This document shows, in pieces, positions 7,926 to 31,335 of a stretch of DNA of 64,000 nucleotides (the stretch's first letter is position 1; the number at the start of each line of letters is the position of its first letter). This DNA comes from an uncultured Holophagales bacterium (lineage in GTDB: Bacteria > Acidobacteriota > Thermoanaerobaculia > Multivoradales > UBA5704), in the NCBI GenBank assembly GCA_963842525.1, contig CAWJGT010000009.1:1248001-1312000 (forward strand). Direction: 5' to 3'. Position numbers and translations under genes: made by a program. The notes beneath the pieces were generated by a model, which was not told where the DNA came from, did not search any database, and was given only the letters and a program-made list of their open reading frames with translations.

Positions 7926-8687
7926 ATGCGAGTCGTCATCGTCACCGGTGGCGCTGCCGGAATCGGCCGCGCCACCGCCCGCCGCTTCGCCCGGGACGGC
8001 GCCCGGGTGGCGGTCTGGGACGTCAAGGCGGAGGACCCGGAGGCGCTCTGCGCCGAGCTGCGCGAGGCCGGCGGGGGGGCCGTGTTCCAGCAGGTCGACG
8101 TGACGGACGCGGCGGCCGTCGAAGCCGCGGTGGCCGCCGTGGTCGAGCGCTGGGGGCGGATCGACGTGCTGGTCAACAACGCCGGGATCGTGCGCGACGG
8201 CCAGCTCGTCAAGTGGAAGGACGGGCAGAAGATTTCCGAGATGAGCGAGCGGGACTTCGACGCCGTGGTCTCGGTCAACCTCAAGGGGGTTTTCCTCTGC
8301 ACACGCGCCGTGGCGCCGCACATGATCGCCGGCGGCGGCGGTGTGATTTTGAATGCCTCGTCGGTGGTCGGGCTCTACGGCAACTTCGGCCAGACCAACT
8401 ACGCTGCGACCAAGGCGGGTGTCGTCAACATGACCCGCACCTGGGCGCGCGAGCTGGGCCGGTACAAGATCCGGGTGAACGCCGTGGCCCCGGGGTTCAT
8501 CGCCACGGAGATGGTCCGGGCCATGCCTGAAAAGATCCTGAGCAACATGGTGGAGCACACGCCGATCGGCCGCATGGGGGAGCCGGAGGACATCGCCGAG
8601 GCCTATTTCTGGCTTGCCTCGGATGCCGCCGGCTTTGTCCATGGTACGGTCCTCTCCGTGGACGGCGGCCTGGTGATCGGTACTTGA
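7926..8687 (+). CDS. fabG: SDR oxidoreductase, FabG/acetoacetyl-CoA reductase-like
   Basis: TGGAAGIG, NNAGI, GNFGQTNYAATK, VAPGFIATEM. Confidence 0.8.
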   Translation: MRVVIVTGGAAGIGRATARRFARDGARVAVWDVKAEDPEALCAELREAGGGAVFQQVDVTDAAAVEAAVAAVVERWGRIDVLVNNAGIVRDGQLVKWKDGQKISEMSERDFDAVVSVNLKGVFLCTRAVAPHMIAGGGGVILNASSVVGLYGNFGQTNYAATKAGVVNMTRTWARELGRYKIRVNAVAPGFIATEMVRAMPEKILSNMVEHTPIGRMGEPEDIAEAYFWLASDAAGFVHGTVLSVDGGLVIGT

Positions 8688-9502
8688 GAGCCTTCACTCC
8701 CCGTGCGCCGGGCCTTCTGACCCACCGCGTCACCGGCCAGGGGGAGCCGTTGCTGCTGCTCAACGGCGCGCTGATGAGCATCGCGGCGTGGCAGCCGGTG
8801 GTGCCCGCGCTCGAACCTCTCTTCAAGGTCGTGCGCTGCGACTTCCGCGGGCAGCTCTTCTCGCCGGGCGAGGCCCCGCCGGACTTCGGCGCGCATGTGG
8901 CGGACGTGCTCGCGGTGCTCGACCATCTCGGGCTCGACCGGGTGCACGTGGCCGGCGTCTCCTTCGGATCGCTCGTGGCGCTGCGGCTCGCGGCGGAGCA
9001 TCCCGGCCGGATCGCTTCCGTGGCCGCGATCACTTCGACCGAGCGCATCAAGGACGAGACCTGGCGCGACCTCGACGAGCTGCGGGACGCCTGCAGGGCG
9101 GCCGCCGCCGGCGGCGACCCCCGGCGCATCTTCGACCTCACCCTCCCGATGTACAGCGCCGGCTACAGGAGCACGCAAGGCGAGAGCCTGGCCCTGCAGC
9201 GGGATTGGATCCAAGCGCTGCCCGAGGTCTGGTTCCGGGGGATCGCGGCCCTTCTTGCCGCGGTCGAGGGGCTCGACATGCGGCCCGACCTGCCACGCAT
9301 CCAATGCCCGGTGCTGGTCGTGGCCGCGGAGGAGGACACCACGTTCCCCCTGGAGCACTCGCGGGCGCTGGCCGGGGCGATCTCCGGGGCTCGGCTCGTG
9401 GTGGTGCCCGGCGTGGGCCACGGGATGGTCATCGAAAAGCCGGACCGCCTCGGCGAGATCCTCGCGTCCTTCTTCGGCCCGCGCCGCAGGGTCCAGGTGT
9501 GA
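8684..9502 (+). CDS. Alpha/beta hydrolase
   Basis: GVSFG nucleophile elbow, DFRGQ, C-terminal GHG. Confidence 0.85.
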   Translation: MRAFTPRAPGLLTHRVTGQGEPLLLLNGALMSIAAWQPVVPALEPLFKVVRCDFRGQLFSPGEAPPDFGAHVADVLAVLDHLGLDRVHVAGVSFGSLVALRLAAEHPGRIASVAAITSTERIKDETWRDLDELRDACRAAAAGGDPRRIFDLTLPMYSAGYRSTQGESLALQRDWIQALPEVWFRGIAALLAAVEGLDMRPDLPRIQCPVLVVAAEEDTTFPLEHSRALAGAISGARLVVVPGVGHGMVIEKPDRLGEILASFFGPRRRVQV

Positions 9503-9616
9503 CGGCGGTCCCTCGTTGGATTATGATTCCGGTGACCGGAGCATCTACAACACTGCTGGAGGAGTGACGCGGTCGGGCACCCTCTGCAGCCGCTCCCGAC
9601 CTCCAAGGAGGCTGCG

Positions 9617-10163
9617 TGACGAGGTGGTTGAAGCGGGTCCGCGCTACCAACTGGTCATCCCGGACCTGCCCGGGCACGGCGAGAGCGCGCCGCGGGAAGG
9701 GCCTCTGACCCTCCGGGGCGAGCTCGACGGCCTCGACGCAGCCATCCGCAAGCTCGAGGAGGGCGAGCGCGTGATCCTGATCGGCAATGCCTTTGGCGGC
9801 TGGCTGTCGCTCATCTATGCTCGCGAGCATCCGGAGAGGGTCGAGCGCCTGGTCCTGGTGAACAGCGTCGGCCTCTCCTTCGACGCCGCAGGGCTCGATA
9901 CCCTGCCGGAAAACCGGGAGCAGGCGCAACGCATGGTGCAATCCCTCGGCGACCCGAACGCACGGCCGGCTCCGGGCTTCGTCCTCAAGCGCGAGGTGAC
10001 TCTGCGCCTGCTCAACGGCCTGCCCGGCGCGCGCCTGCACATCCTTCCGCGGTGCGGCCACCTGCCGCAGCAGCAATGCACGGACGCCTTTCTGAAGACC
10101 CTCCTGGAGATCCTCGGCTCTCCGCCGCCGCCCATCCCGGAGCCGTTCTCCCCGGTTCCTTGA
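9617..10163 (+). pseudogene. Alpha/beta hydrolase fragment, a paralogue of 10183..11124 with deletions
   Basis: Shares LTLRGELDGL, YAREHPERVERLVLVNSVGLSFD and LPRCGHLPQQ with the next gene, but lacks the N-terminus and an internal block. Confidence 0.65.
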
Positions 10164-10182
10164 GCCCCTGTCGGTAGACCAC

Positions 10183-11124
10183 GTGACAAGGCCGGCGAAG
10201 CGGGCTCTCTGGGCGTTGGCGATCCTGGCCGTGGGCGCAGCCGTGGCGCTCGCAGCGGTCTACTACACCCGCCCGCTCGACGTCCTCTCCTGGTACCACC
10301 GGAGGGCCCTCTCGCGGGCCGGCCTGAAGGAGGAGTGGGTTCCAGCCCCTGGCGGGCAGCTCGCGGTCTGGACCGGCGGCCGGGGGAAGACCCTCGTCCT
10401 CGTCCACACCTTGAGCGACCACGCCGGCACCTGGCACGCGGTCGTCCCCGAGCTGCTCCAGCACTATCGTCTGCTGCTCCTCGATCTCCCCGGGCACCGC
10501 GACAGCGCGCCGCGGCAGGGGGAGCTGACCCTCCGTGGCGAGCTCGACGGCCTCGCCGCTGCGGTCCGGGAGCGCGGCGGGCAGGATCCCGTCGTCCTGG
10601 TGGGCAACGGGGTCGGAGGGTGGCTGGCTCTCAGCTACGCCCGGGAGCATCCGGAGAGGGTCGAGCGCCTGGTGCTGGTCAACAGCGTCGGGCTCTCGTT
10701 CGACCTCGGGGAGATCGCCCTCGTGCCCAGGGACAGGGAGGAGGCGCGGCGCTTCGTGGACGCCCTGTACGGTCCGGACACGCCGCCGACACCGGACTTC
10801 ATCCTGGACGATGTGGTCCGGAAGAGCCGGAGGAACCCCTTCACGCGGCTGCTGGCCAATCTGCGCAGCACCGACATGCTGGACGACCGCCTGACCGAGA
10901 TCCGCGTCCCCGCCGACCTGATCTGGGGCGAGGCGGACGGGATCGTGACGCGCGACGTGACACGGCGCCTGCTCGACGGCCTGCCGGGTGCCCACCTGCA
11001 CACCCTCCCGCGGTGTGGCCATCTCCCGCAGCAGGAATGTCCGGAGGCCTTCCTGAAGACCCTCCGGGACCTCCTCGGCTCGCCGCCGCCGGCGCTGCCC
11101 GCGCCGTCCTCATCTTTTCCTTGA
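10183..11124 (+). CDS. Alpha/beta hydrolase-fold protein with N-terminal membrane anchor
   Basis: DLPGH, IWGEADG, CGHLP; the nucleophile elbow reads GNGVGG (no Ser). Confidence 0.8.
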   Translation: MTRPAKRALWALAILAVGAAVALAAVYYTRPLDVLSWYHRRALSRAGLKEEWVPAPGGQLAVWTGGRGKTLVLVHTLSDHAGTWHAVVPELLQHYRLLLLDLPGHRDSAPRQGELTLRGELDGLAAAVRERGGQDPVVLVGNGVGGWLALSYAREHPERVERLVLVNSVGLSFDLGEIALVPRDREEARRFVDALYGPDTPPTPDFILDDVVRKSRRNPFTRLLANLRSTDMLDDRLTEIRVPADLIWGEADGIVTRDVTRRLLDGLPGAHLHTLPRCGHLPQQECPEAFLKTLRDLLGSPPPALPAPSSSFP

Positions 11125-11181: not shown

Positions 11182-11436
11182 GTGAGGCACTCGATCTCGA
11201 AAGACGTCCTCGACCGGTTCGCTCTCGGCCACGCCACTCCCCAGGAGAGGAAGGCCATTGCCGTCCACCTCCTCCACGGCTGTGACATCTGTGCCAAGAC
11301 GTTGCGGGCCGTGGCCTGGCCTGGGGCAGCGAAACGCGACCGGATCTCCGCCCGGGATGAACCCGAGAGCCCTCCGGGCCGTATGAAGAGAGGGAGCGGA
11401 CGAAATAGAACCTCGTCCGGCGTCACTCCAAGGTGA
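11182..11436 (+). CDS. Small protein with zf-HC2/ZAS-like HLxxGCxxC motif
   Basis: LDRFALGHATPQERKAIAVHLLHGCDIC; GGAGG RBS before the GTG. Confidence 0.6.
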   Translation: MRHSISKDVLDRFALGHATPQERKAIAVHLLHGCDICAKTLRAVAWPGAAKRDRISARDEPESPPGRMKRGSGRNRTSSGVTPR

Positions 11437-11484: not shown

Positions 11485-11772
11485 GTGGCACAGCGAATTG
11501 CGGAACCCGGCCTGGATCGTTGGTCGGCAGGGTTTGCCCTGCGTGAGGAGAGCCCGATCATCGTCGCCCATCTCGCGGAGGGATGCCCATCCTGCACCGC
11601 GGGGCTCGAAGTGTTCCACCAGGTCGACGCGCCGGACCCGGCGCGCCAGGCCGTCCTCGAGCTCTTCGAGCGCGAGCTCCTCTCGACCCTCCAGGCGTCG
11701 GGCAGCTCCGTGCAGGCGCTCCACGCCGCCCTGGCGGGGATCGCGCTGAGCGGCGAAAAGCGCGCCGATTAG
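11485..11772 (+). CDS. Small protein with zf-HC2/ZAS-like HLxxGCxxC motif
   Basis: IIVAHLAEGCPSC; AAGGAGG RBS before the GTG. Confidence 0.6.
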   Translation: MAQRIAEPGLDRWSAGFALREESPIIVAHLAEGCPSCTAGLEVFHQVDAPDPARQAVLELFERELLSTLQASGSSVQALHAALAGIALSGEKRAD

Positions 11773-11877
11773 ACCTACCCTCCTGTCCCTCTCCCTGCCG
11801 CCTCGCGCGAGGCAGGGAGAGGGGCTTTGTCGGACATCCGCAGCAAAGTCAGCTCCTCTCGCTCCTCTCCCTTTGTG

Positions 11878-11906
11878 TTGACGCTACAGGTGTTTCCCTA
11901 TAGCAT
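11878..11906 (+). promoter_or_regulatory. Sigma70-like promoter upstream of the Cys/Thr repeat gene
   Basis: TTGACG-N17-TAGCAT. Confidence 0.55.
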
Positions 11907-12073
11907 CTGAACAACACTTGAATAACGTGTTCTGAGCCGGATATGCAAATACGAGCACAAGCGTACCCGAGCACTCAGCCCTCGGTCCGTTCGCCTCCAT
12001 GACGGCTTTCCTCTTGGTGCTCCGATCCCAGCCCTCGACGAGACCAACCACCATTTCTCATAGGGGATGAATC

Positions 12074-13612
12074 GTGAATCCATTTACCCGGTTTGTGCAG
12101 GGCCCGCTGACTCAGGACCTGTGTAGCGGGGGGGCCGTCACGGCCGGCGGCCCCACAGTCTGCGGCGGCATCCGGACTTGCGGCGGCTGTCCTGGCGGCG
12201 AGATCACCGCCGCATCGCTTTGTGACATCGTGACCTGCGGCGGCCCCACAGCCTGTGGCGGCATCCGCACCTGCGGCCAGCTCACCTGCGGCGGGCCCAC
12301 GGAGTGCGGCATCGACACCTGTGGCCGGACCTGCCTCATCACCTGTGGTGGTCCGACCTGGTGCGGCGGCATTCAGACCTGCGGCCAGACGTGCGCCCAG
12401 ACCTGTCAACAGATCACTTGCGGCGGGCAGACCAACTGCGGCGGTGTGCGCACCTGTGGCGAGACCTGCCACCACCTCACCTGCGGCGGGCAGACGAACT
12501 GCGGCGGTGTCCAGACCTGCGGCCAGACCTGCATCCTGATCACCTGCGGCGGCGGGCAGACCAACTGCGGCGGTGTGCGCACTTGCGGCGAGACCTGCCA
12601 GATCACCTGTGGTGTGCCGACGCAGTGCGGTGGTGTGCGCACCTGTGGCGAGACCTGCCAGATCACCTGCGGTGGGCAGACGCAGTGCGGTGGCATCCAG
12701 ACCTGTGGCGAGACCTGCCAGAAGATCACCTGCGGCGGACCGACCGAGTGCGGTGGCATCGAGACCTGCGGCCACACCTGCTCTCCGGCCATCACCTGCG
12801 GCGGCGCGACCGAATGCGGCGGCATCCGGACCTGCGGCGAGACCTGCCAGAAGATCACCTGCGGCGGCGCGACCGAATGCGGTGGCATCCGGACCTGCGG
12901 CCAGACCTGCTCCCCCGAGATCACCTGCGGCGGGCCGACGGAGTGCGGTGGCATCCGGACCTGCGGCCAGACCTGCAATCAGATCACCTGTGGCGGACCG
13001 ACCCAATGCGGCGGCATCCAGACCTGCGGCCATACCTGCTTGCCCGCCATCACCTGCGGCGGACCGACGGAGTGCGGCGGCATCCGGACCTGCGGCCAGA
13101 CCTGCCACCAGATCACCTGTGGCGGACCGACCCAGTGCGGCGGCGTCGAGACCTGCGGCCATACCTGCTCGCCCATGATCACCTGCGGCGGGAAAACCGA
13201 ATGCGGCGGCATCCAGACCTGCGGTCAGACTTGCCAGATGATCACCTGTGGCGGGAAGACGGAGTGCGGCGGCATCGAGACCTGCGGCCGGACCTGCTCT
13301 CCCGCCATTACCTGTGGCGGGAAGACCGAGTGCGGTGGCATCCAGACCTGCGGCGAGACCTGCCAACCGATCACCTGCGGAGGGAAAACGCAGTGTGGCG
13401 GCATTGAGACGTGCGGGCCGGCCTGCCCTCCGGGCACCTTCGGGCCCGAGCATACCTGCGGCATCATCTGCCTCCCCGAGGAGAAGTCCGAAAAGGCCGG
13501 AGGCCCCATCACACAGGGTCCCATGACCCAATGTGCTGGCGTCCAGACCTGCGGCTGCCCCGGAGGTGGCAAAGAGGGCGGCTCGGGCGGCAAGGGGGAG
13601 AAGGGCGCGTGA
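12074..13612 (+). CDS. Giant Cys/Thr/Gly tandem-repeat protein; putative RiPP (lanthipeptide-like) precursor
   Basis: 512-aa open frame; about 19 full and 2 degenerate ITCGGxTxCGG[IV]xTCGxTC units with synonymous codon variation; AGGGG RBS before the GTG; directly upstream of kinase, HopA1-like and LanC genes. Confidence 0.8.
   Translation: MNPFTRFVQGPLTQDLCSGGAVTAGGPTVCGGIRTCGGCPGGEITAASLCDIVTCGGPTACGGIRTCGQLTCGGPTECGIDTCGRTCLITCGGPTWCGGIQTCGQTCAQTCQQITCGGQTNCGGVRTCGETCHHLTCGGQTNCGGVQTCGQTCILITCGGGQTNCGGVRTCGETCQITCGVPTQCGGVRTCGETCQITCGGQTQCGGIQTCGETCQKITCGGPTECGGIETCGHTCSPAITCGGATECGGIRTCGETCQKITCGGATECGGIRTCGQTCSPEITCGGPTECGGIRTCGQTCNQITCGGPTQCGGIQTCGHTCLPAITCGGPTECGGIRTCGQTCHQITCGGPTQCGGVETCGHTCSPMITCGGKTECGGIQTCGQTCQMITCGGKTECGGIETCGRTCSPAITCGGKTECGGIQTCGETCQPITCGGKTQCGGIETCGPACPPGTFGPEHTCGIICLPEEKSEKAGGPITQGPMTQCAGVQTCGCPGGGKEGGSGGKGEKGA
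12230..13432 (+). repeat. Coding tandem repeat, mostly 60-66 bp units, with a 129-bp higher-order unit in the 3' half
   Basis: Recurrent atcacctgcggcgg...acctgcggc...acctgc; 21-aa and 22-aa units alternate from about 12662. Confidence 0.95.
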
Positions 13613-13630
13613 TGTAAGCTGACCTGCGAT

Positions 13631-13673
13631 GCGGAGGCCCGGTCCCGCACTCTCTGGCGGGGCCGGGCTCCGT
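13631..13673 (+). terminator. GC-rich stem-loop between the precursor and kinase genes (attenuator or mRNA stabiliser)
   Basis: gcggaggcccggtcccgc-actctctg-gcggggccgggctccgt; no strong U-tract. Confidence 0.55.
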
Positions 13674-13701
13674 CTCCGGGCCTTCGGACATCGAACGAGA
13701 C

Positions 13702-14800
13702 ATGCTGGTCCAACCCGAAAACGTCGTCCATTACCTGGCCGAGCGCCGGCTGCTGACCTTGCAGTCGGTGGTCGAAGGCGACTTCATGGTCTTCGATCAG
13801 TCGAGCCGGAACTACAACCTCAAGGTGCTGCGGCGGAAGTCCCCCGGCTTCTTCATCAAGCAGGTGCGCACCCGCACATCCGCCTACACCCTCACGCTGG
13901 AGCGGGAGGCGAAGTGTTACGAGATGGCGGCGCGCAACCCCCGCTTCGGCGCCATGGCCGCGCTCCTGCCCAGGTGCCACCACTGGGACGCGGCGAGGAC
14001 GATCCTCGTCCTCGAGATGCTTCCCGATGCCGAGAGCCTCTGGGAGCACCATCAGCGGCTGGGCCGGTTCCCGCGCGAGATCGCGGAGCCTCCAGGGAGA
14101 CAAGCTCGGCACCTACCACCGCCAGGCGGAGCTGTTCTTCCCCGCCCTGGAGGAGCTGCACCTGTTCGAGAAAAAGCTCCCCTGGATCCTCTCGATCCAC
14201 GAGACCCATCCGCAGTACCTGAGCCAGATGAGCCAGGGCAACGCCCAGCTCCTGCAGATCCTGCAGGACTATCCCGGGCTCACCCGCGCCCTCGACGCCC
14301 TCAAGCGCTCCTGGGTCTTCCGCGGGCTGATCCACGGCGACATCAAGTGGGAGAACCTCCTCCTGTACCGCGAGCGCCCGGAGGACCCGCCGGACATCCG
14401 GGTCATCGACTGGGAGATGGCCGACCTCGGCGACGAGTGCTGGGACACGGGGGCGATCTTCCAGGCCTACCTGAGCTTCTGGATCTTCATGCTGCCTCTC
14501 AGCCCCACCGTCAGCCTGGAGCAGGCATCGGAGATCTCGCCGTTCAAGGGCGAGGACATGCAGGTGGCCCTGGCCGCCTTCTGGACCCGCTATGCAGCGG
14601 CCCGCGGCTTCGGCCGCGCCACGTCGCGCCGCTACCTCGAACGGTGCATGGCCTGCGCCGCCGCGCGCATGGTCCAGACGGCCTACGAAGGGATCCAGCG
14701 GTCGCCCCAGATCACGCCCCAGGCGCTCTGCCAGCTCCAGATGAGCATGAACATCCTGCGCGATCCGGCCGCTGCCGTCGGCCAGATGGTGGGGCTGTGA
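13702..14800 (+). CDS. APH/phosphotransferase-family kinase (LanK-like), one frameshift at about 14090
   Basis: N-lobe SSRNYNLKV...FFIKQ joins C-lobe LIHGDIKWENLL...VIDWEMADLGD if one C is removed from gagcctccag (14086-14095). Confidence 0.85.
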
Positions 14801-14813
14801 GGAGGGCCGCACG

Positions 14814-15881
14814 TTGAGCACGATGGACTGGCAGGAGGCCCTCGACCAGGTCTTCGCGGCCATCCGCATCGAGTCGCCGCACGAGCTGACGTTCGCGGAG
14901 AGGAAATTCGCCGTACCGGCGGCGGCCGCCCCGGCCGGTAATGGCGCGGCGGGTGCGGCTGGTGCGGCGAAGGTGCCGCTGGTGGAGCTGCTCACCGACG
15001 TCCTCTACCGCTATGTCTACAGCCGGCCCTTCAAGCCGCCGCTTCCACCGCCTTCTCCGGACGGCCAGGAGCGCCAGGACTTCAGGCTCGACCCCGAGCT
15101 CAGCGCCGTCCTCTCCGCCGCCAACGCCTCGCGCGACCGCTGGGAGCACGGCTGGACCATCGGACAGATCCACTCCTCCGGCCAGATCACGGCGCAGCGC
15201 GGGAGCCGCTCGCGGTCGCTCTGGCCGGGCCAGTTCCTGAGCAAGGACGGTCCGGGTGCGCGCCCGCGGCCGGGGGCGCAGATCAGCATCTTCTATCCCC
15301 GCGAGTCCACGTCGCTCCAGCGCGGCTTCTACTACTGCTTCGGCGAGACCCCCGAGGACGAGAGCTTCACCCTCGGCCTGGTGCGGATCTACTGGCACGT
15401 CGGGCTCGCCGGGGCGCCGGAGCTGGTGCGGTCGCTCTCCGCGCGGCTCAACTTCTTCCAGGTGCCGTTCCGCATGAAGTGCTCGGTCATGCCCAGCCAG
15501 TACGACCGCACGGACGTGGCGGTCATCTACCTCGCCAAGCGCCTCTTCCCCTTCGTCGCCGACCTGCTCCAGGAGGTCTATCCCGCCGTGCGCCCGCACC
15601 TCGGGCCCGAGGTGCCGTTCTTCACCTGGCGCCTGGCCCCCGGGGTCGGCATCGCCGAGGACCCGGCCAACGGCGAGAGCTTCGGCCAGCACCGCTGCCG
15701 TCTCCTGGCGGAGTGCTGCTGGAGCTGCTTCCTGCGCGGCGATCAGGAAACGGCGTCGCGGCTGGCGGAGCTGCGCGTCGTGGCCGGCGCCCAGGGCACG
15801 GACCCGGAGCGCTTCCACCTCAACGCCGGCTCCCTGGACTGCTACGAGGCGTGCGCGACGGGGGAGGAATCATGGTCATGA
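14814..15881 (+). CDS. HopA1-like protein (LanY-type phospho-Ser/Thr lyase)
   Basis: LSAAN...GW, GFYYCFG, VRIYWHV, VPFRMK, YDRTDVAVIY, LAPGVGIAEDP, SFGQHRC; GGAGG RBS. Confidence 0.85.
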   Translation: MSTMDWQEALDQVFAAIRIESPHELTFAERKFAVPAAAAPAGNGAAGAAGAAKVPLVELLTDVLYRYVYSRPFKPPLPPPSPDGQERQDFRLDPELSAVLSAANASRDRWEHGWTIGQIHSSGQITAQRGSRSRSLWPGQFLSKDGPGARPRPGAQISIFYPRESTSLQRGFYYCFGETPEDESFTLGLVRIYWHVGLAGAPELVRSLSARLNFFQVPFRMKCSVMPSQYDRTDVAVIYLAKRLFPFVADLLQEVYPAVRPHLGPEVPFFTWRLAPGVGIAEDPANGESFGQHRCRLLAECCWSCFLRGDQETASRLAELRVVAGAQGTDPERFHLNAGSLDCYEACATGEESWS

Positions 15882-17200
15882 CCGAGACGCCCGCGATGCC
15901 TGGCGGCGCTGCCAGCCCGCAGCCGGCCGCGGAGCACCGGGCGCTCTTCCTGGAGACCGCGGCTTCGCTGGGCGCGCGGATCTGCCGCGACGCGCTGTGG
16001 GGCGACGGCGTCTGCAACTGGATCGGCTTCGCCATGGAGAGCCTGGGCGGGCGCTGGCGGCACGCCCACCGCGCCTATGGCGGCGAGCTCTATGGGGGGA
16101 CGAGCGGCATCGCCCTCTTCCTCGCCCGCCTGCACGCGGTGACCGGCGAGCGCATGTTCAAACGCACCGCACTGGGGGCGATCCGCCATGCCCTGGAGCA
16201 CGGCGCAAAAGAGATCGTGCCGACGGCGCGCATCGGCGCCTACAGCGGTTGCACCGGCCTCGCCGACGCAGCTCTCCAGATCGCCGTCCTCCTGGAGGAC
16301 GAGTCGCTGCGGGCGCCGGCCCTGGCTCTCCTGGAGGAAGCGGCGAGCGGCGAGACCGGCCGCAACTTCGACCTGCTGGCGGGCTCTGCCGGAGCGATCC
16401 CGCTGCTGCTGCGGGCCCACGCCGGGCACGAAGGTCAACCGGGGCCGGCTTCCCTGCAAGAGGCGGCGGTGCGCCTGGGCGACGACCTCCTGGCCGCCGC
16501 GGCGCGTGCCGACGACCGCTGGTCCTGGGGAGAATTCGGCATGCCGGGGGCGAAGCAGAAGGACAACCTCCTCGGCTTCTCCCACGGCGCCGGCGGCATC
16601 GGCTGGGCCCTGCTGGAGCTCCACCAGGCCACCGGCGAGGCGCGGTTCCGCGAGGCCGGCGAAGGGGCGTTCCGCCACGAGCGGCACTGGTTCGACCCAG
16701 AGCACGGCAACTGGCCGGACCTGCGGGACCCCGAGGTCTCGGGCGCGGCGGCAGCCTCGGACGTCCCGGCCTTCATGACCGCCTGGTGCCACGGCGCGGC
16801 GGGCCTCGGCTTGTCCCGCCTGCGCGCCTGGGAGCTGTCCGGCGACGAGGAGTGCCGGCGCGAGGCCGAGGTGGCCGTCGACACCACCCTGGAGAACCTC
16901 CGCGGCGGCACGGAGATGAGCCAGACCAACGACTCTCTGTGCCACGGCAGGGGAGGGAACTGCGAGACGCTGATCTACGGCTCCCAGGTCCTGGGCCGTC
17001 CCGAATGGCTGCAACGGGCCGAGGAGATCGGCCTCCGGGAGATCGAGACCTGCGCCGCGCAGCGCCTGCCCTGGCCCTGCGGCACCTACGGCAGCGTCGA
17101 AGTGCCCGGCCTCCTGCTGGGCCTCGCCGGCATCGGCTATTTCTATCTCCGCCTCGCCGACCCGGCCGGCACGCCGTCGGTCCTGATCCCGCTGCCGTAA
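15872..17200 (+). CDS. lanC: Stand-alone LanC-like lanthionine cyclase
   Basis: LYGGTSGIALFL, DLLAGSAG, GFSHGAGG, AWCHGAAG, SLCHGRGG, GLLLGLAGIG. The start (ATG 15872 or 15878) overlaps the end of the HopA1-like gene. Confidence 0.9.
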   Translation: MVMTETPAMPGGAASPQPAAEHRALFLETAASLGARICRDALWGDGVCNWIGFAMESLGGRWRHAHRAYGGELYGGTSGIALFLARLHAVTGERMFKRTALGAIRHALEHGAKEIVPTARIGAYSGCTGLADAALQIAVLLEDESLRAPALALLEEAASGETGRNFDLLAGSAGAIPLLLRAHAGHEGQPGPASLQEAAVRLGDDLLAAAARADDRWSWGEFGMPGAKQKDNLLGFSHGAGGIGWALLELHQATGEARFREAGEGAFRHERHWFDPEHGNWPDLRDPEVSGAAAASDVPAFMTAWCHGAAGLGLSRLRAWELSGDEECRREAEVAVDTTLENLRGGTEMSQTNDSLCHGRGGNCETLIYGSQVLGRPEWLQRAEEIGLREIETCAAQRLPWPCGTYGSVEVPGLLLGLAGIGYFYLRLADPAGTPSVLIPLP

Positions 17201-17692: not shown

Positions 17693-19411
17693 CTAACGCC
17701 TGCCCGCCGAGGTCCGGTTGCGGCTCGGCTTCGGCTTCTTCTTCCGGCGCCGCTTCGCCGCGAGCGCCGCGGTGGCTTCGTCACGGAGAGTCTGCGCCGG
17801 CTCGAAGTCCGGCGCTCCTTCGATCGCCTGCTCGGCGTGCGCCAGAGCGGCCTCAGTGTCTCCGAGATGAAAGAGGCAGAGCCCGACGTTGAACACGGTC
17901 GCCGGATTGGACCCGTAGAGAGCAACCGACTGGCGGAAGAAGGAGAGGGCGTCCTCGTAGCATTGGATTTCCGTGAGCAGCACGCCAAGGTGGAAGGGCA
18001 GGTCGAGCGACTCGCGGATCGGGAAATAGACCCTCCAGATCTCGTGGACCGCGTGGTAGACCTCGACACGGAGGAGGTCCGGTGCCGTGCCCACCTGCTT
18101 CATCAGCGCGGGGAAGCAGCCCAGGAGGATGTTCGAGTCCCAGCCCGACAGGCGCAGCCAAGTCAGGAGCTCTTCCAGAGGGAGCTCTTCGTACCCCCTC
18201 TCGACGCTCTTCTTGAGATCGAAAAAGTCGTCCGGCCCCAGGCGCTCGATCGCATCATCGAAGGCTAGACGGGTCTCCAACAGGCCGCCCGGGGGCGTGC
18301 CGAACAGGCCGGCGACGATGCTCAGGCTGGAGTACAGGTGCGTCGTGCTCAGGAAGTCGCCGCCCTGGTGGACGAACCACCGGCCGAAGGCGTGGTAATT
18401 GACCATCATCGAGAAGCTGCCATGGACCGCCAGGCCCGGCTCGCTACGGCCGGTCAGCAGCTCCTCGCGGCTGAAGCCCTTGTCGCCGGAGAGCAGCAGG
18501 AGCCGGTTGTCCGACAGCCGGGCGAGCTGGCGCGCGCCACGGATGGCAGCGCAGGGGAAGAGAAAGGTCGTGTCGTCCAGGCTCGCCACGTACTCCTGGA
18601 GGATTCGGTCGAGCTCCGGATCGCCATAATAGTCGGCCGGGGCGGGACACTCCTCCCAGGAGACCACGATCCGCCCGAGCATCCCGGAGTCTTCGAGATC
18701 GATCTCTCCCTCCGGCGCGGCGAGCGTCGCCAGGCATTCGAAAAACTTTCCATCGTGGACCGAGAAGACGTCCTGGGGGATGCCGTCGAAGACGTAGTTC
18801 GCCAGAACGATGAGCGGATTGCGCAGCGTTTGCGGCGAGAGGACTTCCCCCGAGCAGGTGAGGCGGATCTCGAAGTCCTCTCCGGCGTCGTAGCGCGCAA
18901 AGTCGAGCACTCCGGATTCGACGAACGACTGGAGGTCCGGATGATTGCGCAGGTGGTCGAGGTTGTTCTCCGTGAAGTCGGTCAGGACATAGCGGACCGG
19001 CACATGGCTCAGCGGCGACCGGCCGAGCAGGTCAAGGAAGCGGTTGAGGAACAGGTACCCGAAGCGGCCGGCCCCGCAGCCGAGCTCGACGATGTAGACC
19101 GGATGCCGGAGGTCGAGCGGCGCGAACGAGCCCCGCTGCGGAGACGTCGTCCCCGAGCAGTCACGCAGCCAGCCGAGGACCACCTTGGCGTAGGAGTCAG
19201 CGATCCAGCCGTTGCTGGTGATGTAGTGAGGGACCTGCCCCTCGGTCCAGGCCCGGACCCCCTGCACGTCGAAGAACTTCCGCTGGAGCTGCCAGAGGAG
19301 CGACTCGGACAGGCGCTTGCCGTGTTCGAGGACGTGACTGGCGACGACCGTCTCGGCGGGGCCGCTCTCCGGATCAGGCATGGGCTCAGCGTCTACGAAG
19401 TCTCGTCGCAA
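17693..19411 (-). CDS. SAM-dependent methyltransferase (MidA/NDUFAF7-like) with C-terminal TPR
   Basis: VYIVELGCGAGRFG, ANYVFDGIPQD; TPR-like helices at the C-terminus. The start may be ATG 19381. Confidence 0.8.
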   Translation of the reverse strand: MRRDFVDAEPMPDPESGPAETVVASHVLEHGKRLSESLLWQLQRKFFDVQGVRAWTEGQVPHYITSNGWIADSYAKVVLGWLRDCSGTTSPQRGSFAPLDLRHPVYIVELGCGAGRFGYLFLNRFLDLLGRSPLSHVPVRYVLTDFTENNLDHLRNHPDLQSFVESGVLDFARYDAGEDFEIRLTCSGEVLSPQTLRNPLIVLANYVFDGIPQDVFSVHDGKFFECLATLAAPEGEIDLEDSGMLGRIVVSWEECPAPADYYGDPELDRILQEYVASLDDTTFLFPCAAIRGARQLARLSDNRLLLLSGDKGFSREELLTGRSEPGLAVHGSFSMMVNYHAFGRWFVHQGGDFLSTTHLYSSLSIVAGLFGTPPGGLLETRLAFDDAIERLGPDDFFDLKKSVERGYEELPLEELLTWLRLSGWDSNILLGCFPALMKQVGTAPDLLRVEVYHAVHEIWRVYFPIRESLDLPFHLGVLLTEIQCYEDALSFFRQSVALYGSNPATVFNVGLCLFHLGDTEAALAHAEQAIEGAPDFEPAQTLRDEATAALAAKRRRKKKPKPSRNRTSAGRR

Positions 19412-20502: not shown

Positions 20503-20986
20503 GGGCGCCTCCTTCAACCGTGGGCGAACTGCGGGCTTTCGGGCCTCTCGTCTCGCGGCCTTGTGGATTTCAGCGACTAGTGTAGCTCCAAATCCCCATG
20601 CCGGACAAGCTTTCCTCGGCAAAACACCCGGGCGCACCTATCCGGCGGAGCTTGCGGCGGAAACCCCGGGCGCCATTTCCGCGTACTCCTCGGCAAGGGG
20701 GAACAAGCCCATGACCATACAAAGCCATGTTCGCGCCGGCGGCAGCCCTTGGCTGGACTGAGCGTCCCGCTGCGAGGAGGTGAACGCCGATGAAGATGCA
20801 GAGCCATCTTCGTGCCGGTGCCATTCCCTGGGTCGATTGATCCGACGCGGGGCTTACGGCGACGGAGTCATCCGCCGTTTGCCGGGGTCACCGCCCAGAT
20901 CCTTCTCTGCGCTCAGGATGACACGACGGAACGGATGCCGGCCCCGGTTCATCCCGTTCCCTGGCAACGTTTCGAACACCCTGGAG

Positions 20987-23900
20987 CTACGCCGCCGGCC
21001 GCAGCTCCTCTTTCCGTTTCGGTGCCCGTTTCGGCAGCAGCCGCCGGAGCGCGTCCCTGATCCCCTCCACGCCGCGCAGGTCGTCGAAGATCGAATAAAA
21101 GACCGGCGTTGCCACCAGGGTCAGCAACAGCGAGAGGGTCTGGCCGCCGATCACGACCACGGCGATGGCGCGGCGCTCTTCGGCGCCCGGGCCGGTGCCG
21201 AGGGCGAGGGGCAGCATGCCGGCCACCAGTGCGAGGGTGGTCATCAGGATCGGCCGCAGGCGGTCGCGGTTGCCCTGGAGGATGGCCTGGCTGCGCTCCA
21301 TTCCCTGGGATCTGAGATTGTTCATGTGATCGATCTGCAGGATGGCGTTCTTCTTGACCACGCCGAAAAGGACCAGGATCCCCAAGGCTGAGTAGAGGTT
21401 CAGTGTGTTGCCGGTCGCCCAGAGGGAGACGAGGGCGAAGGGGATCGACAGCGGCAGCGAGAGAAGGATGGTCAGCGGGTGGATCAGGCTCTCGAACTGC
21501 GAGGCCAGGATCATGTACATGAAGGCGATCGAGAGCACCAGGGCCCAGACGCAGCTCACGGTAGGTCCGCGCGAGCTCCCGCCCGCGTCCGCCCACCGAG
21601 GTGGAATAGGCCGGGGGCAGGTTCATCCCGTCCACCGCCCTCTGGAGCGCAGCGAGCCGCTCGGCCAGGGCATAGCCGCGGTCCACGCCGCCGCGTACGC
21701 TCACCTGCCGCTGCCGGTCGAGCCGTTCGATCCGCGAGGCAATGGTGGACTCTTCGATCCGCACCAGGCTGTCGAGCCGGACGAGCCCGCCCCGTCCGCT
21801 CGGGACAGCGAGGCGCTGGATCGTCGCCGGGTCGTTGCGCGCTCCTTCAGCCAGCCGGATCGCGACGTCGTAGTCGTCGTTGACCCCGGCGTCGTAAAAC
21901 CGCGAGACGCGCGGGTCGCCGCCCACGAGGAGGCGGAGCGCCGTGGCGATGTCGGTCATCCGGACGTCCAGGTCCGCGGCGCGGGCACGGTCCACCTGAG
22001 CCCGCACCTCGGGCTTGTCGAGCTTGAGCGAGGTATCGATATCGACGAAACCTCCCATGTTGCGGGCGTTCTGGCGCAGCCGGTCGGCGTAGGCATAGAG
22101 CGTGTCGAGGTCGGGCCCGCGCAAGGCGAAATCCACTTCGAAGTTGCCGCCGCCGATGTCGAACCGCGTGGCGTTGCGCAGCACACAGCGCAGGTCCTTG
22201 TGCTTCGTGAGACGGCGCCGCACCTCGTCCATCACGTCGGCCTGCCTGTAGTTGCCGCGGAACGCCTCCAGGGGATCGAGCCGCAGCAGGCCGCGGGCGA
22301 GGCGCCCGAGCGAGAAGGTCCGCTCGCCGTGCGGGGTGAGCCGGACGAAGACGTTGCCCTGGTTGACCGCGCCGAGGAAAGAGGTGCCTGCGGTGGAGAG
22401 GACCATGCGCACGCCGCGGACCTGGCGCAGCTCGGCCTCGACCTCGCGCATGGCATCGTCCATGGAGGCGAGGCTCGTTCCCTCGGGCGCGTTGACGTTC
22501 ATTTCGAATTCGGATTCATCGACCTCGGCGGGCATGTACTCCACAGGGACGAGCCGGTAGAGCGGGACGGTGGCGGCCATCACGACCAGACAGGACACGG
22601 CCACGAGGCCCCGGTGGGCCACGGCCGCCGCCAGCAGCCGCTGGTAGGCGCTGTCGAGCCGGGCGTAGAAGCCGCGCCGGGAGCGCGCCTCTTCGCCGGG
22701 CGTCATGCGCAGCAGGCGCGCGCTCATCATCGGCGTCAGGGTGAAGGAGACGAGCAGGGAGATCAGCACTGCCGCCGCGGCCGTGATGCCGAACTGGAAG
22801 AGGAAGCGCCCGGCGACGCTCGACATGAAGGAGACGGGGATGAAGATCACCACCAGCGAGAAGGTCGTGGCCAGCACGGCGAAGCCGATCTCGGCCGTGG
22901 CCGCGCGCGCCGCCTCGAAGGTGGTCATCCGCTTTTCCTCGACGAAGCGGAAGACGTTTTCCAGCACCACGATGGCGTCGTCGATCACCACGCCGACCAT
23001 GAGCACCAGGGCCAGCATGGTGACGCTGTTGAGGGTGAAATCCAGGGCTTTCATGACGCCGAAGGTGGCGATGACCGAGGCCGGGATGGCCACGGCGGCG
23101 ATGACGGTCGAGCGCCAGCTCCGCATGAAGGCGAGCACCACCAGCGAGGCGAGGATGCTGCCCAGGATCAGGTGGAGGTCGATCTCGTGCAGGGCGGCAT
23201 AGATGTAGCGCGACTGGTCGCGGACGACCCGCAGCTCGATGTCCGCGGGGAGCTCGGTGCGGACCCGTTCCAGGGCCTCCTTGGCCCCCTCGATCACCTC
23301 GACCGTGTTCGCCCCCGACTGCCGCATCACTTCCAGGGTGACGGTCGGCACGCCGTCGAGCCGGACGACCGACCGCTGCTCCTTGGTGCCGTCCTCGGCG
23401 CGGCCGAGGTCGCGGATGCGGATCGGCTGGCCGCGGACCGTGCGGACCACAAGGTCGTCGAAGGCCCGCGGCTCGGTCAGCCGGCCCAGGGTGCGCACGG
23501 TCATTTCGCGCAGGGGGCCGGTGAGGTTGCCGCCGGGCACGCTGCTGTTCTGCCGCACGAGGGCGTCGCGCACCTCGGTGACGGGGATCTGGTAGGCCTC
23601 CAGACGGTCGGGCTCGAGCCAGACGTTGATCGCCCGCTCGAGGCCGCCGGCCAGGCGCACCTCGCCGACGCCCGACGCCCGCTCGACCTGTGGTTTTACG
23701 ACTTTGTCGGCGATCTCGGCGAGCTCCTCGATGGAGCGGGGGCCGGCGACCGCGACGATCAGGGCCGGCGTGACGTCGTTGTTGAACTTGGAGATCTCGG
23801 AAAGGAGAGCATTCTCGGGCAGGTCACCCGCCACGGAGGCCACCCGGTCGCGGACGTCCTCTGTCGCCGCGTCGATGTCGCGGTCGAGGCGGAAGGTGAT

Positions 23901-24179
23901 GAGCGTGAAGGAGACGCCCGCGGCGGAGATCGAGCGCAGCTCCTCGATCCCTGCGACGGTGTTGACCGCCTCCTCGATCTTCTGCGAGACCTCGGTCTCG
24001 ACCTCTTCAGGGGAGGCGCCCGGCAGGAAGATGCGGACGGTGACGGTGGGGAGGTCGACGGCGGGGAAGCGGTCGATGTCGAGCCCGGCATAGCTGGCCG
24101 CGCCGATCACCACCAGCCCAAGGATGAGCATGGCAGCGAAGACCGGCCGGCGGATGCAGATCTCGGCGAGCTTCTGCAC
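20987..24179 (-). CDS. RND efflux permease (AcrB/MdtBC family), paralogue 2; frameshift at about 21552
   Basis: [31 protein letters not shown]; the C-terminus is in ORF 20987..21559. Confidence 0.9.
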
Positions 24180-24320
24180 GGTCGTCCCCCCCTCGGCAGA
24201 GGGTGAGTGAAAAGTGAAACCTGTTTCATAAGTAAGGTGCTATAGGTCTATCAAAGCGAGCCGGGGGGACAGCGAAGCCCGGCTGCCTTCGTGCCTGCAC
24301 ATTTGTGCTATGCTGTTGTC

Positions 24321-24563
24321 ATGGCCAAGCAACTGACGATCCGTGGTGTGTCAGAGGAAGTCGGGCAGAGGCTGGAGAGCTTGAGCCGGGCCCGGGGTCA
24401 GAGCGTGAACGCGATGGTGCTCGAGATCATCGAGGCAGCCGTCGGGGTGCATGAGCGGCGACGTAGGCTGGCTCGCTACGCGACTTGGACTCCCGAAGAC
24501 CTGGCAGAATTCAACGAAGTGCTTGCGGCACAGCGGACGATCGATGATCCCCTCTGGCGCTGA
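24321..24563 (+). CDS. vapB: VapB/FitA-like RHH antitoxin
   Basis: MAKQLTIRGV...ARGQSVN; overlaps the PIN gene. Confidence 0.8.
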   Translation: MAKQLTIRGVSEEVGQRLESLSRARGQSVNAMVLEIIEAAVGVHERRRRLARYATWTPEDLAEFNEVLAAQRTIDDPLWR

Positions 24564-24981
24564 GTTCGCCGGCCGGTTGGTTCTCGATACATCTGCTTAT
24601 TCTCATTTCCGGGCGGCAGACGAGCGCGTTCTCGACCTCATTGCTGCTGCCGAGATCGTTTTTCTCCCAACCGTCGTCCTGGGTGAGCTGGAGGCCGGCT
24701 TCAACCTCGGTCGGCGAGAACGAGAGAACCGTACTCTCCTGGCCGAGTTCCTTGCCGAGCCCTTCGTCTCGATTCTGCCCGTAACACCTGCGGTCGCCCG
24801 CCGCTACGGCAGGCTGTTCGCCGATCTACGGCGAGCCGGCACTCCGATCCCGATCAACGATATCTGGATTGCAGCAACTACCCACGATTGCGGAGGGCAT
24901 CTCCTGACTTTTGACGGGGACTTTGACCACATCTCCTCGTTGGATTGTACGGTGCTGACGCCTCTTGATTCGGCTTCTTGA
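24544..24981 (+). CDS. vapC: VapC PIN-domain toxin
   Basis: LDTSAY, VLGEL, IPINDIWIAA, LTFDGDF. Confidence 0.9.
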   Translation: MIPSGAEFAGRLVLDTSAYSHFRAADERVLDLIAAAEIVFLPTVVLGELEAGFNLGRRERENRTLLAEFLAEPFVSILPVTPAVARRYGRLFADLRRAGTPIPINDIWIAATTHDCGGHLLTFDGDFDHISSLDCTVLTPLDSAS

Positions 24982-25006
24982 CACCGCATACGCTGCGTCG
25001 CGAGTC

Positions 25007-28000
25007 CTATTCGTCGCGCCGCTGAAGCTCTCGCGCTCCCCTGAAGTTGCTGAGGACCAGTGCGTCGACAATCGCGCGGTATGTGGGCTTTGACTCCAGT
25101 CCAAGAATGGGAGAGTCGCGAAGTTGAGCAAGCCAGCTCACGAGAAGGAATCCACTCGTCCGCGCGGTTCCATCTTCGTCGACCACCAAGCTACGGACCC
25201 ATTCAAGGCCAGGGGCTACTTGTTCTTGGACTGGCTGTGCCTGCAGGAAACCGACGAGCGCATCAACGCACGACATTTGACCGCAGGCCCGCTCAAGCCA
25301 TTCGTCCATGTGGCTCGATATCGCGATCAGCGGGAACCAGTTGGCGCGAGCCCTCGCCAAAACCGCATCCAGGTCGTCCGGGTACCCAAAGGCACTCGGA
25401 CTCGGTATGAGGTTCTGAAGCAGCTTCTCATCTGGGCGCAGGCGGCGGGTGGTTGGCGCAACGCGAAGGTTTGCCAAACCCAACTCCATCAACTGCGGCC
25501 ACACCTCCACCAGCGACGGTACGAAATGCGTCTCGTGGGTGGCCACGATGGTCAGAGCGTGTAGGTAATCAGCTTGGGCGTCAGGTGACGCACACAGTCG
25601 CTCCGCGAGCTCCACGACGACAGGCCGGTCCGTGGCTGCTGCCCAGCGCAACACCGCTGAGGCGAAACTGGCGTGCTGCTCATGACGCAAGTGATAGTTG
25701 TGTTCCTCGGCCCAATGACAGGCCGTGCGGGCGTAAGCATCGAGCAAGCCATCGCGCAGCCGCTCGGCGCGCGCCTTGATACAAGTTTCACCTTGAGCCG
25801 CGTCGAGCGTACAGATCGCAGCCGGAGCGATGTGCGTGAGCATCAAGTGTCGGACAGGTCTCTCCGCAAGTGCAACAAAGACGTCGCCGATGATCGGTTC
25901 CATCTGCCGGCGTAGATTTTCGAAGCGATCACCCAGAGCCACGCTTCTTGCGCCGGCTTCAATCGCCGGCCACAGCAACTCGTGCCAACAACGCCCCTCC
26001 GCCATCTGCCAGCAAGGCTGTCCAGAAATGACGCGCAAGCCTTCGGCGGCATTCTGCCGAACCTCAATGGAGGGGCTACTCGTACCCGCAGTCAGAGCCG
26101 CGGCGAGTACGGTGAGAGCCTCAGTCGCCTCGCGCGGCGGTTCTGCCGGATGCTGTTCATCGTCTGTATCCACAAATGCTAACGGGAGAGCGAGAGCGGC
26201 TTGCCGATCCGCACCATAAAAGTAAAGTTGTTCGCCGCCGAACTGATCTTTGTAGGGACCCGTGGCACAATAAATTAAGAGGCTGAAAGCCCATTCTAGG
26301 CTCAGATCAGGGACACTTAGCCCATTCGCGGCGTTTTGAAAAACAGCCGCAGCCACTCCAGCAAGAGCCTGCAGAATGTCGAGTGGTTCGTCGAGCGGTT
26401 CGCTCTCGAGGTTCCGCGCGGCGCGGAAGTCATCGGCCAACTCCGGGCTTTCCGGCGGTGTTGCAAGAGCGGCGCGATATGGGGTCACTAAGCGCGGTCG
26501 ATAGCGGTTCTGCAATCGATACATCTCTGTGACTTTCGCCGAGTGTGCCTGAGCTGGGGCCAAGGCCTGCACTACATCCTCTGGTACCTGCAACTCCAAG
26601 ATATGATGTCCTTCGTGCGCGCGTAGCGAGTAGGCATCCCAGTCAAGGTGTGCCGCCCACTGCCGCACGTGCGGCGGCGCAGTCTCACCTCCGGCTGCTT
26701 CGACCAAGCGGCGTCCGACAGCGCGCAGCCGCTCGACCGCCTTGTCGTCCCCACGCTGCGCGGCCGCAAGCACAAGCCGGGTAGCGACCTCGCGAGGAGT
26801 CCAACCCCGCCGGTCGTGGCCTGCCAGTTTCGGCGCGTCCGGACCCTGCACATGCAGGAAGCCTTCCGATGTGGCCCTGCCGAGCTCCAACTGCCAGATA
26901 TCTGGTGCGGCAAGGAACCCGTCGAGCTCGTCGACAACCTTCTCGATGTGCCGGACCAGGAAGCCATACACCAGGCCGGCCGTGGCGAGGGTGGTCGCGT
27001 CTCGCATCAGCCAGGTGGCGATGGCTCGCGGCGAGACATCCATCTGCACCTGTTCGTCCAGAAACATCTCGAGCGCAAAGAGTGCGCTCATACACGGGTA
27101 CGGGCCGAAGGAGGAGCCTCGGTACCAAGACCATACGTGAGAGTCGCCGACAAACACGCGACTTCCGGCCCCGAGCAGTTCTATCTGCAGCCCCTCGCCT
27201 TCCGCCTGCTGGGGTGCGGATTCGGTGAAACGAAAACCTACGTTGCGCAGTGCCTCGATGCGCCCGTGGGCGCCATGATCAAGCATCCGGTTGATCAGCG
27301 CTAGCCCGTGTGGGAGATCTCGGCGTAACAGCGGCAGAAACGGTCCCCGGTACCAAGCGGCCATCGGCGTGTTCGAACCCACCGCCTTCGTGACTTGGCC
27401 GCGCGAGGTAGTAAGCCTCGGCCAGGTCGGCCAACAGCGCCGGATCCTGCTTGGACATAAGCATCGCCACATCAGGGCTTTCTACGACCGGCGCCAGAAA
27501 GTCGGGCGCCAGCTGCGCGATAGTGCGCAGAGCGGCGGTGCTGGCTTCATTGTTCTCACTGCCCAGCAGCCCCAGCGATTCAAGCCTTTCCTTCTCACCA
27601 TGCTCGATCTCACGGCGCATGAGCACATCACGCACACGCGACCGTAGCGGACGGTACGACGTAACGTCCTGGCCGGCAACCTCGAGGTGCGCAACGCCTC
27701 GCAGCCAAGAGAGAACAAGCTCAAGGACAGGATCAACGCGATAGGATCTCGGCCGATCGAGCATCCCGGCTGTGTCCACCAACCACGACACCATAGGAGC
27801 ACCGATGACTGGATCGCAAGCACCGGCTTGCGAAAAGCGCAGCTTGAGAGTGCGTATGGCCTCGGTTCGCATCTCGGCGTTGTCGAGGAGCGCCGGGGTC
27901 AGCTCACTCAGCGCTCGATCTGCCCAACCCGCGGTCAGCAAGCCCTCCCACGGCAACTCGGCCCACCGCGCTCCATGCGTGGTTGACAGCTCAGAGAACT

Positions 28001-31227: not shown

Positions 31228-31335
31228 GGTCAAAGAATCCCCTGAATCTGGCCCGCCATGCGTTCCTTATAGGGGAGCTTTGTCCCGGCGTCAAGATATT
31301 TGGGAGGGTGTTGCCGGGTGGGGTGGGATCGGGGA

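Follow-up and report, generated by a model that had tools for sequence, protein, structure and literature searches.

Lanthipeptides of classes III to V are formed by consecutive kinase, lyase and cyclase steps (PMC9486802, PMC11186320, PMC12328550). A set of separate LanK, LanY and LanC enzymes characterizes subgroup Vb (PMC11186320, PMC12328550), whose only member, as counted in 2024, was mSmoA (PMC11186320). Class V itself is reported from no bacteria but actinobacteria (PMC12328550), and genome mining for this class took open reading frames (ORFs) of under 110 residues (PMC9486802). Here we describe a locus in a 64,000-nt stretch of DNA (the window) from an uncultured Holophagales bacterium of the Acidobacteriota (GCA_963842525.1, contig CAWJGT010000009.1), in which a gene for a 512-aa protein built of Thr- and Cys-rich repeats precedes genes for a LanK-type kinase, a LanY-type lyase and a LanC-type cyclase. 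Lanthionine rings are known from short peptides. The repeat protein described here is, on balance, probably a giant LanA-type substrate of the three-protein lanthionine synthetase encoded directly downstream. By analogy with the known pathways, we infer that its Thr residues lose water and form methyllanthionines with Cys.

The locus resembles the class Vb pathway (SmoA, LanK/LanY, SmoC; Pei et al. 2022, as described in PMC11186320 and PMC12328550), in which separate genes for an APH-type kinase, a HopA1-type lyase and LanC also lie beside the substrate gene; the window kinase gene reads as frameshifted. The expected chemistry is the same, namely Ser/Thr dehydration via phosphorylation and subsequent Cys addition. 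It differs in its substrates, which are short leader peptides in Vb, whereas the proteins found here have 246-604 aa and a conserved N-terminus of about 17 residues. The hosts are Acidobacteriota, and the kinase scores far below the LxmK cut-off. Class IV LanL enzymes (NF038150) likewise combine a kinase, an OspF/HopA1-like lyase and a zinc LanC domain, and the window LanC matches the LanL model (9.4e-30). However, LanL is a single polypeptide whereas three genes are present here, the score is 103.6 against a cut-off of 650, and the best matches of the window cyclase are LanM-type domains (TIGR03897, LicM2 6st5). Validated enzymatic thioether crosslinks on large proteins are very few (PMC13692751). 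In the case of CrpA/CrpC of Methanococcus voltae, a Cys-rich protein encoded beside a RiPP-type enzyme (RiPP, a peptide made by the ribosome and modified after translation) is also thioether-crosslinked, but there a radical SAM/SPASM enzyme forms the crosslinks, which are ranthionines and not lanthionines arising from dehydration and Michael addition (PMC13692751); the two systems are likened by description only. In a full-text literature search, with subscription journals mostly outside its coverage, such a repeat protein was nowhere described, and no paper covered reports a thioether-crosslinked protein produced by lanthionine enzymes. A protein-sized, Thr/Cys-balanced repeat substrate for class V-type lanthionine machinery is probably undescribed, and it occurs here in phyla from which class V is not reported (PMC12328550).

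Results

The repeat protein and its units

The features of the locus are listed in Table 1. A script count of the repeat protein gave 86 Thr, 86 Cys, 8 Ser and 122 Gly in 512 aa, which agrees exactly with the approximate hand count of Thr, Cys and Ser in an earlier note on this gene. The plus frame has a G+C content at third codon positions (GC3) of 0.85, and GGGGA lies six bases upstream of the GTG start. The GC3 value, the protein-level conservation in 19 further acidobacterial genomes and the conserved N-terminus indicate that this frame is the real one. The gene is single-copy in the source genome. No Pfam or NCBIfam family matched the protein, including metallothionein and other named Cys-rich family models, and an ESM Atlas search gave no usable match.

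Table 1. Positions of the features of the repeat-protein locus within the window.
Feature	Position	Strand	Remarks
Promoter-like site TTGACG-17-TAGCAT	11878..11906	+	about 170 nt 5' of the repeat gene
Repeat-protein gene, putative LanA-like giant precursor	12074..13612	+	GTG start, 512 aa
Conserved N-terminal 17 residues MNPFTRFVQGPLTQDLC, candidate recognition/leader element	12074..12124	+	alignment of 14 proteins
Array of about 19 units ITCGGxTxCGG[IV]xTCGxTCxx	12230..13432	+	residues 53-453
C-terminal part: one degenerate module GPMTQCAGVQTCGC and Gly/Lys/Glu-rich tail	13433..13609	+	unit cutting
G+C-rich hairpin in the 89-nt spacer between repeat and kinase genes	13610..13694	+	minimum free energy -54.7 kcal/mol
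LanK-type kinase gene, APH family, split by a frameshift in this assembly	13702..14800	+	PF01636, 1.7e-7
LanY-type phospho-Ser/Thr lyase gene, HopA1 family, 355 aa	14814..15881	+	PF17914
LanC-type cyclase gene, 442 aa, ATG start after GGGGGAGG	15872..17200	+	PF05147, 8.9e-54; overlaps the lyase stop

In the N-terminal alignment, M1, G10, P11, L12, T13 and Q14 were invariant, and F4, L16 and C17 were at least 90% conserved. This conserved segment is not a signal peptide, and none of the 19 full-length acidobacterial N-termini resembles one when judged by eye, without a predictor. Since no signal peptide was seen, the 86 Cys would be made in the cytoplasm, where Lan enzymes act. The relatives carry C-terminal tails comparable to that of the window protein, rich in Gly/Ser/Thr and Lys/Asp/Glu.

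Cutting the protein at [ILV]TCG[GV] yielded 19 units with a period of 21 residues, which we numbered I1 T2 C3 G4 G5 x6 T7 x8 C9 G10 G11 [IV]12 x13 T14 C15 G16 x17 T18 C19 x x. In accord with this, Tandem Repeats Finder reported a period of 63 nt (16.4 copies, 78% matches, 12385-13427). The earlier note had assigned four Thr and four Cys to each full unit; this was so in 16/19 units, the others being one unit with three of each, one with five of each and the last, which merges with the C-terminal tail. The variation that it had described at the x positions was borne out in 20 modules (x6, P9/Q4/K4/A2; x8, E8/Q6/N3; x13, R9/Q7/E4). In the same modules Thr7 was encoded by ACC (11), ACG (7) or ACA (2), always as Thr, and changes in the flanking codons altered the residue. 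Because the Thr codons drift synonymously while x6, x8 and x13 change, Thr appears to be held by selection and not by recent duplication only. Within the window protein, 59 Thr have a Cys as the next residue and 21 have one two residues on.

Soil-metagenome contigs of related strains from sequencing run X5 showed skips and back-steps of 63-739 nt within the array (12180-13110); these may stem from differing repeat numbers or from a collapse in assembly. Repeat collapse may likewise account for the parts of the array left uncovered by contigs and for the X5 joints.

Balance of Thr and Cys among homologues

The 20 homologues compared (246-604 aa) contained 1117 Thr and 1114 Cys in all (32-91 Thr and 33-88 Cys per protein; r = 0.97), and Ser (198 in all) did not track Cys (r = 0.20). 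The metagenome relative P0001 has 43 of each. A free variation of Thr beside a constant Cys, the pattern that the earlier note had named as contrary to its proposal, was thus not observed among the homologues. In 250 modules, position 2 was Thr in 210 and Ser in 22, and position 7 was Thr in 231 and Ser in 10; with a relaxed anchor, position 14 was Thr in 236, Ser in 11 and another residue in 13 of 260. The Thr positions were thus Thr or Ser in 93-96%. Thr was replaced chiefly by Ser, the sole other dehydratable residue, in preference to Val, Ile or Ala.

The balance also extended to the linkers between the invariant cores, where Thr equaled Cys in 176/223. The linker architectures included TCTC (92), TC (20), a Cys-Gly-rich linker-Thr arrangement (30) and the same arrangement with Ser (16). 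Since the balance is kept where Thr and Cys lie far apart, it is not merely that of a copied TC dipeptide. Among anchor-defined segments, 173/227 had equal numbers of Thr and Cys, compared with 36 ± 5 in random draws from the composition of each protein; these balance figures are descriptive and are not probabilities.

Enzyme genes downstream of the repeat gene

The four genes are co-directional, with junctions of 89 nt, 13 nt and an overlap. Near the repeat gene there is no second Cys- and Thr-rich ORF that could serve as substrate. The N-terminal part of the kinase reads in the frame of 13702 and the C-terminal part in the frame of 14027-14800. The lyase matched PF17914 with 2.3e-32 (112.6 bits; cut-off 22.7), and its nearest solved chain was PDB 9dk1_B, annotated 'Lyase' (2.8e-10). 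The cyclase matched the LanM C-terminal model TIGR03897 (6.9e-82) and the LicM2 cyclase domain 6st5_A (2.3e-16), with the SHG, WCHG and CHG motifs aligned. These motifs, which we take to be the zinc and acid/base sites of LanC, are present at 19/19 loci. Pfam scans of the 34 window ORFs detected no YcaO or radical SAM family.

Apparent lyase-LanC fusions were dropped as candidates; they were only long stop-to-stop frames in G+C-rich DNA, with the two genes in different frames. The spacer hairpin (Table 1) had a z-score of -2.13, and 7/200 shuffled sequences folded equally well; it lacks a T tail. This weak signal may represent an attenuator or an mRNA stabilizer.

Conservation of the four-gene order

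Among the other genomes of the same GTDB family, 17/91 were matched, two of them weakly. One match (G087; E 5.9e-5, 19% identity) was rejected as spurious, its locus (L036) having none of the genes; a weak match in G011 (E 4.6e-4) and two loci that end at contig ends (L029, L025) were also left out of the relatives. At 14/15 own-family loci with flanks, the repeat gene, kinase, lyase and LanC genes occurred in this order; the contig of the fifteenth stops inside the repeat gene. The order was the same at 5/5 loci from Blastocatellia, Pyrinomonadaceae and other Acidobacteriota, which makes 19/19 for the acidobacterial relatives whose flanks could be used.

When one genome from each of 185,579 species was scanned for the pattern, 26 loci were found, consisting of the same 15, five from other Acidobacteriota and six from Longimicrobium (Gemmatimonadota). 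The relatives are recorded as soil metagenome-assembled genomes of Thermoanaerobaculia and the other groups found. A profile search of 1.84 billion representative sequences returned only 36 proteins at E <= 0.001, which indicates that the family is rare.

Small and secreted relatives

Relatives of 74-178 aa begin with a leader of the usual RiPP kind (MKKLxLxLDALEVDSF...) and continue with 2-5 modules, which in the metagenome proteins among them are of the same type as in the window protein. A 111-aa metagenome protein combines an acidobacterial N-terminus with three modules and a basic tail. Peptides of 95 aa from Longimicrobium have the leader MKKLRLxLDALEVDSF...GTVHG... and three VSGGGATQCGGVQTCGxGC modules, each containing three hydroxyl residues and three Cys. 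These peptides weakly matched the heterocycloanthracin/sonorensin model TIGR03601 (6.4e-5; scores of 23.5 and 17.2 bits, with the cut-off at 35) and the pinensin leader model NF038180 (0.03-0.08; below the cut-off of 24 bits). Both weak matches fit, at the level of sequence, a RiPP precursor with a leader and Cys/Gly repeats; in contrast, the window protein matches neither model, and a YcaO family was not detected in its surroundings, as described above. The small relatives suggest that the giant repeat proteins may be expansions of a RiPP precursor family. A kinase-lyase-LanC triad was located on another contig in 3/5 Longimicrobium genomes, and LanC domains were present in 5/5.

No synthetase gene adjoins the precursors encoded at the Longimicrobium loci L056-L058 and L060-L062 and at L066-L068, which have about 95 aa, a leader and three TQCGGVQTCGxGC modules. 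The metagenome loci L069 and L071, in DNA of 51-53% G+C, encode secreted proteins of another type, represented by P0002, in which Ser-rich ITCGGATSCGG[IV]QTC-type repeats are combined with a signal peptide and a C-terminal domain that is conserved and about 130 aa long. One of them adjoins ABC-transporter-like genes, identified from ORF beginnings only. The proteins P0001-P0004 matched no family in Pfam or NCBIfam, and a metagenome scan with P0003 gave no confirmed locus.

Predicted fold of the unmodified chain

AlphaFold2 was run with 14 homologues and gave a mean predicted local distance difference test score (pLDDT) of 64.6 and a predicted TM-score (pTM) of 0.60; most of residues 120-400 had pLDDT 70-83. 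No modification enters into the model. The chain without modifications is predicted to have a fold that resembles that of beta-solenoid antifreeze proteins (3p4g_A), which share short Thr-rich tandem repeats with the window protein. The Tenebrio antifreeze repeat, TCTxSxxCxxAx, is rich in both Thr and Cys. Antifreeze beta-solenoids are secreted and unmodified, whereas the window protein lacks a signal peptide and is linked to lanthionine enzymes; 3p4g is Ca-dependent and not Cys-rich, and there is no sequence match.

Genes surrounding the locus

The promoter-like site (Table 1) was identified by consensus match only, with one match against 0.4 expected in shuffled sequences. It sits within a 300-nt intergenic stretch of lower G+C (11773-12073).

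Directly 5' of the repeat locus lie a short-chain dehydrogenase/reductase (SDR) gene and then three tandem alpha/beta-hydrolase genes (7926-11124, plus strand). They are followed by two tandem ORFs of 84 and 95 aa (11182-11436 and 11485-11772, plus strand), each with an H-x3-C-x2-C motif (HGCDIC, EGCPSC) that resembles those of anti-sigma zinc fingers; both ORFs are without Pfam or NCBIfam matches and are not conserved in the relatives. A gene for 572 aa (17693-19411, minus strand), with a weakly methyltransferase-like N-terminal part and C-terminal tetratricopeptide (TPR) repeats, is convergent with the LanC gene. None of these neighbors, from the SDR gene to the methyltransferase-like/TPR gene, recurs at related loci.

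Farther downstream, the stretch 24000-31300 has a G+C content of 0.61-0.64, compared with about 0.68-0.72 around it, and may be acquired DNA. A RhuM-family gene (30184-31233; PF13310, 8.9e-110) lies at its end, and efflux pumps of the resistance-nodulation-division (RND) type flank it (20949-24179 and 31336-34524).

Discussion

Proposed modification of the repeat protein

If the repeat protein is the substrate of the adjoining enzymes, the APH-type kinase would phosphorylate its Thr side chains, as in class III-V lanthipeptides, and the HopA1-type lyase would remove the phosphate to leave dehydrobutyrine (Dhb). The zinc LanC cyclase would then add Cys thiolates to the dehydrobutyrines and close methyllanthionine rings, as many as four in each 21 residues and some 80 over the whole chain. 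Because Thr equals Cys in each unit and there is almost no Ser, nearly all dehydrobutyrines would be expected to be consumed. An exhaustive crosslinking with one-for-one Thr-Cys pairing, and a product that stays an uncut polymer, are hypotheses that go further.

Two ring schemes can be drawn on the unit. In the first, with overlapping rings, each Thr would be linked to the next-but-one Cys downstream (2->9, 7->15, 14->19 and 18->3' of the following unit). In the second, each Cys would be linked to the next Thr downstream (3->7, 9->14, 15->18 and 19->2'). It is chiefly in abutting units that Cys3 and Thr18 are both present; isolated modules mostly lack them. Such a pattern would fit a ring across the unit boundary.

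Evidence against the proposal and alternative explanations

Several findings weigh against the proposal. The earlier note had stated that Thr is conserved as strictly as Cys. Thr comes close to this but falls somewhat short; with an anchor demanding neither residue, Cys was kept in 226 and 222/250 (89-90%) and Thr/Ser in 196-207/250 (78-83%). All such counts overstate independence, because the repeats and the homologues share ancestry. A special ring topology would be required, since most Thr and Cys are direct neighbors (the 59 TC pairs), which cannot be the usual ring partners. In mersacidin, a ring does join adjacent residues. The two halves of the kinase scored 22.8 and 33.5 bits against the LxmK equivalog model NF038156, below its cut-off of 315. 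Finally, an all-against-all comparison of 20 neighborhoods found no gene family shared beyond the four, so that no conserved transporter or protease lies beside the operon.

The kinase gene raises a further difficulty. It contains one extra C at 14089 relative to 4/4 aligned relatives, in which the two halves are united in intact 365-aa APH ORFs. As the gene reads frameshifted, the pathway may be inactive in the source strain, unless the extra base is a sequencing error. Should the frameshift be real, the locus would be recently dead in the source genome, and the protein, if made, would stay unmodified there. Contigs of run X2 over 14089 (depth 3.6) and part of the X5 depth did not show the deletion of the extra base. 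On the other hand, the base was missing from soil-metagenome contigs of runs X1 (a contig of 151 nt with one other difference), X3 and X5, and the repeat, lyase and LanC genes are all intact. No public sequencing run contains more than 0.22 of the sampled words of the genome, and RNA runs contain at most 0.13. Taken together, a recently inactivated locus is possible but doubtful.

Overlapping ORFs at 38592-39806 and 39640-42123 (both minus strand) carry the C-terminal and N-terminal halves of the SMC_N head domain, respectively (profile positions 135-220 and 2-136). They look like a single SMC-type gene split by a frameshift. This second apparent frameshift in the window may point to assembly indel errors, which it would fit, and to that extent it speaks against a real lesion in the kinase gene.

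A different product could arise from the same enzymes if the modified chain were then cut into about 19 small lanthipeptides of four rings each. Such a product would be a cis-encoded library, because the x positions differ among the units. The relatives of 74-178 aa, with their classical leader and 2-5 modules, resemble ordinary RiPP precursors; several homologues have Gly-rich, possibly cleavable linkers between modules; and the window has three alpha/beta-hydrolase genes directly upstream. However, the units of the window protein abut without a spacer or a recognizable cleavage motif, no protease or transporter gene is conserved in the 20 neighborhoods, and the upstream hydrolases were not found at the other loci. 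The pairing of Thr18 with Cys3 where units abut would, moreover, fit an inter-unit ring. We therefore regard a multi-core precursor as unlikely.

It has also to be considered that the protein is an unmodified, structural Cys/Thr-rich beta-solenoid held by disulfides or metal, in the manner of beetle antifreeze proteins or a metallothionein, and not a substrate of the Lan genes at all. AlphaFold2 predicts, with moderate confidence, that the unmodified chain would form a three-sided beta-solenoid with three short strands per unit. VIA-align superposed the model on solved beta-helices, namely 8vba_A (Z 22.4, rmsd 4.1, 391 aligned residues) and the antifreeze beta-helix 3p4g_A (Z 19.7, rmsd 3.5, 276 aligned, 7% identity). 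The model is weak evidence, because solenoid models are generic for sequences that repeat every 21 residues or so with Gly turns. Foldseek found nothing in PDB at E <= 0.001. In the secreted relatives P0002 and P0003, which carry a signal peptide as well as a C-terminal domain, the [ST]-C pattern persists, and 41/45 and 39/44 Cys, respectively, follow a Thr or Ser. At two flanked loci of this type there was no kinase or lyase within 8 kb, and no LanC match was obtained with a query that was out of frame. For P0002 and P0003, a disulfide solenoid is a fair rival. For the acidobacterial proteins, an unmodified solenoid is improbable in view of the four-gene linkage at 19/19 loci, the lack of another Cys- and Thr-rich ORF that could be the substrate (the spacer to the kinase gene has 89 nt), the replacement of Thr by Ser instead of Val, Ile or Ala, and the absence of Pfam, NCBIfam and Foldseek matches; disulfides in particular are unlikely because no signal peptide was seen, which would place the proteins in the cytoplasm.

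The earlier note had preferred Dhb-Cys crosslinking to a metallothionein or a disulfide protein. The kinase-lyase-LanC linkage and the Thr/Cys balance give this preference strong support, and the less strict conservation of Thr, the solenoid model and the frameshifted kinase qualify it. Metallothionein-like or pure disulfide readings do not explain the enzyme linkage or the missing signal peptide.

Significance

With the repeat protein taken as a lanthionine synthetase substrate, a more speculative picture of its product is an uncut protein of about 50 kDa with a continuous ladder of about 80 methyllanthionine rings, some of them bridging neighboring units. Such a thioether-stapled polymer, perhaps a solenoid rod, might give soil Acidobacteriota a structural or protective material that resists proteases and redox attack, and would not be a diffusible antibiotic. 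The stoichiometry predicts that up to 86 x 18 Da are lost and that no thiol stays free. The compact four-gene operon, together with natural size variants down to 74-111 residues that suit structural studies, makes this a testable case.

If the proposal is true, lanthionine chemistry would be a protein-scale crosslinking system, and the locus would show how such enzymes handle dozens of sites per chain. Heavily stapled polymers that are genetically encoded would also have a natural template in it. For the bacteria concerned, it would mean that class V-type synthetases extend from Actinobacteria to Acidobacteriota and Gemmatimonadota.

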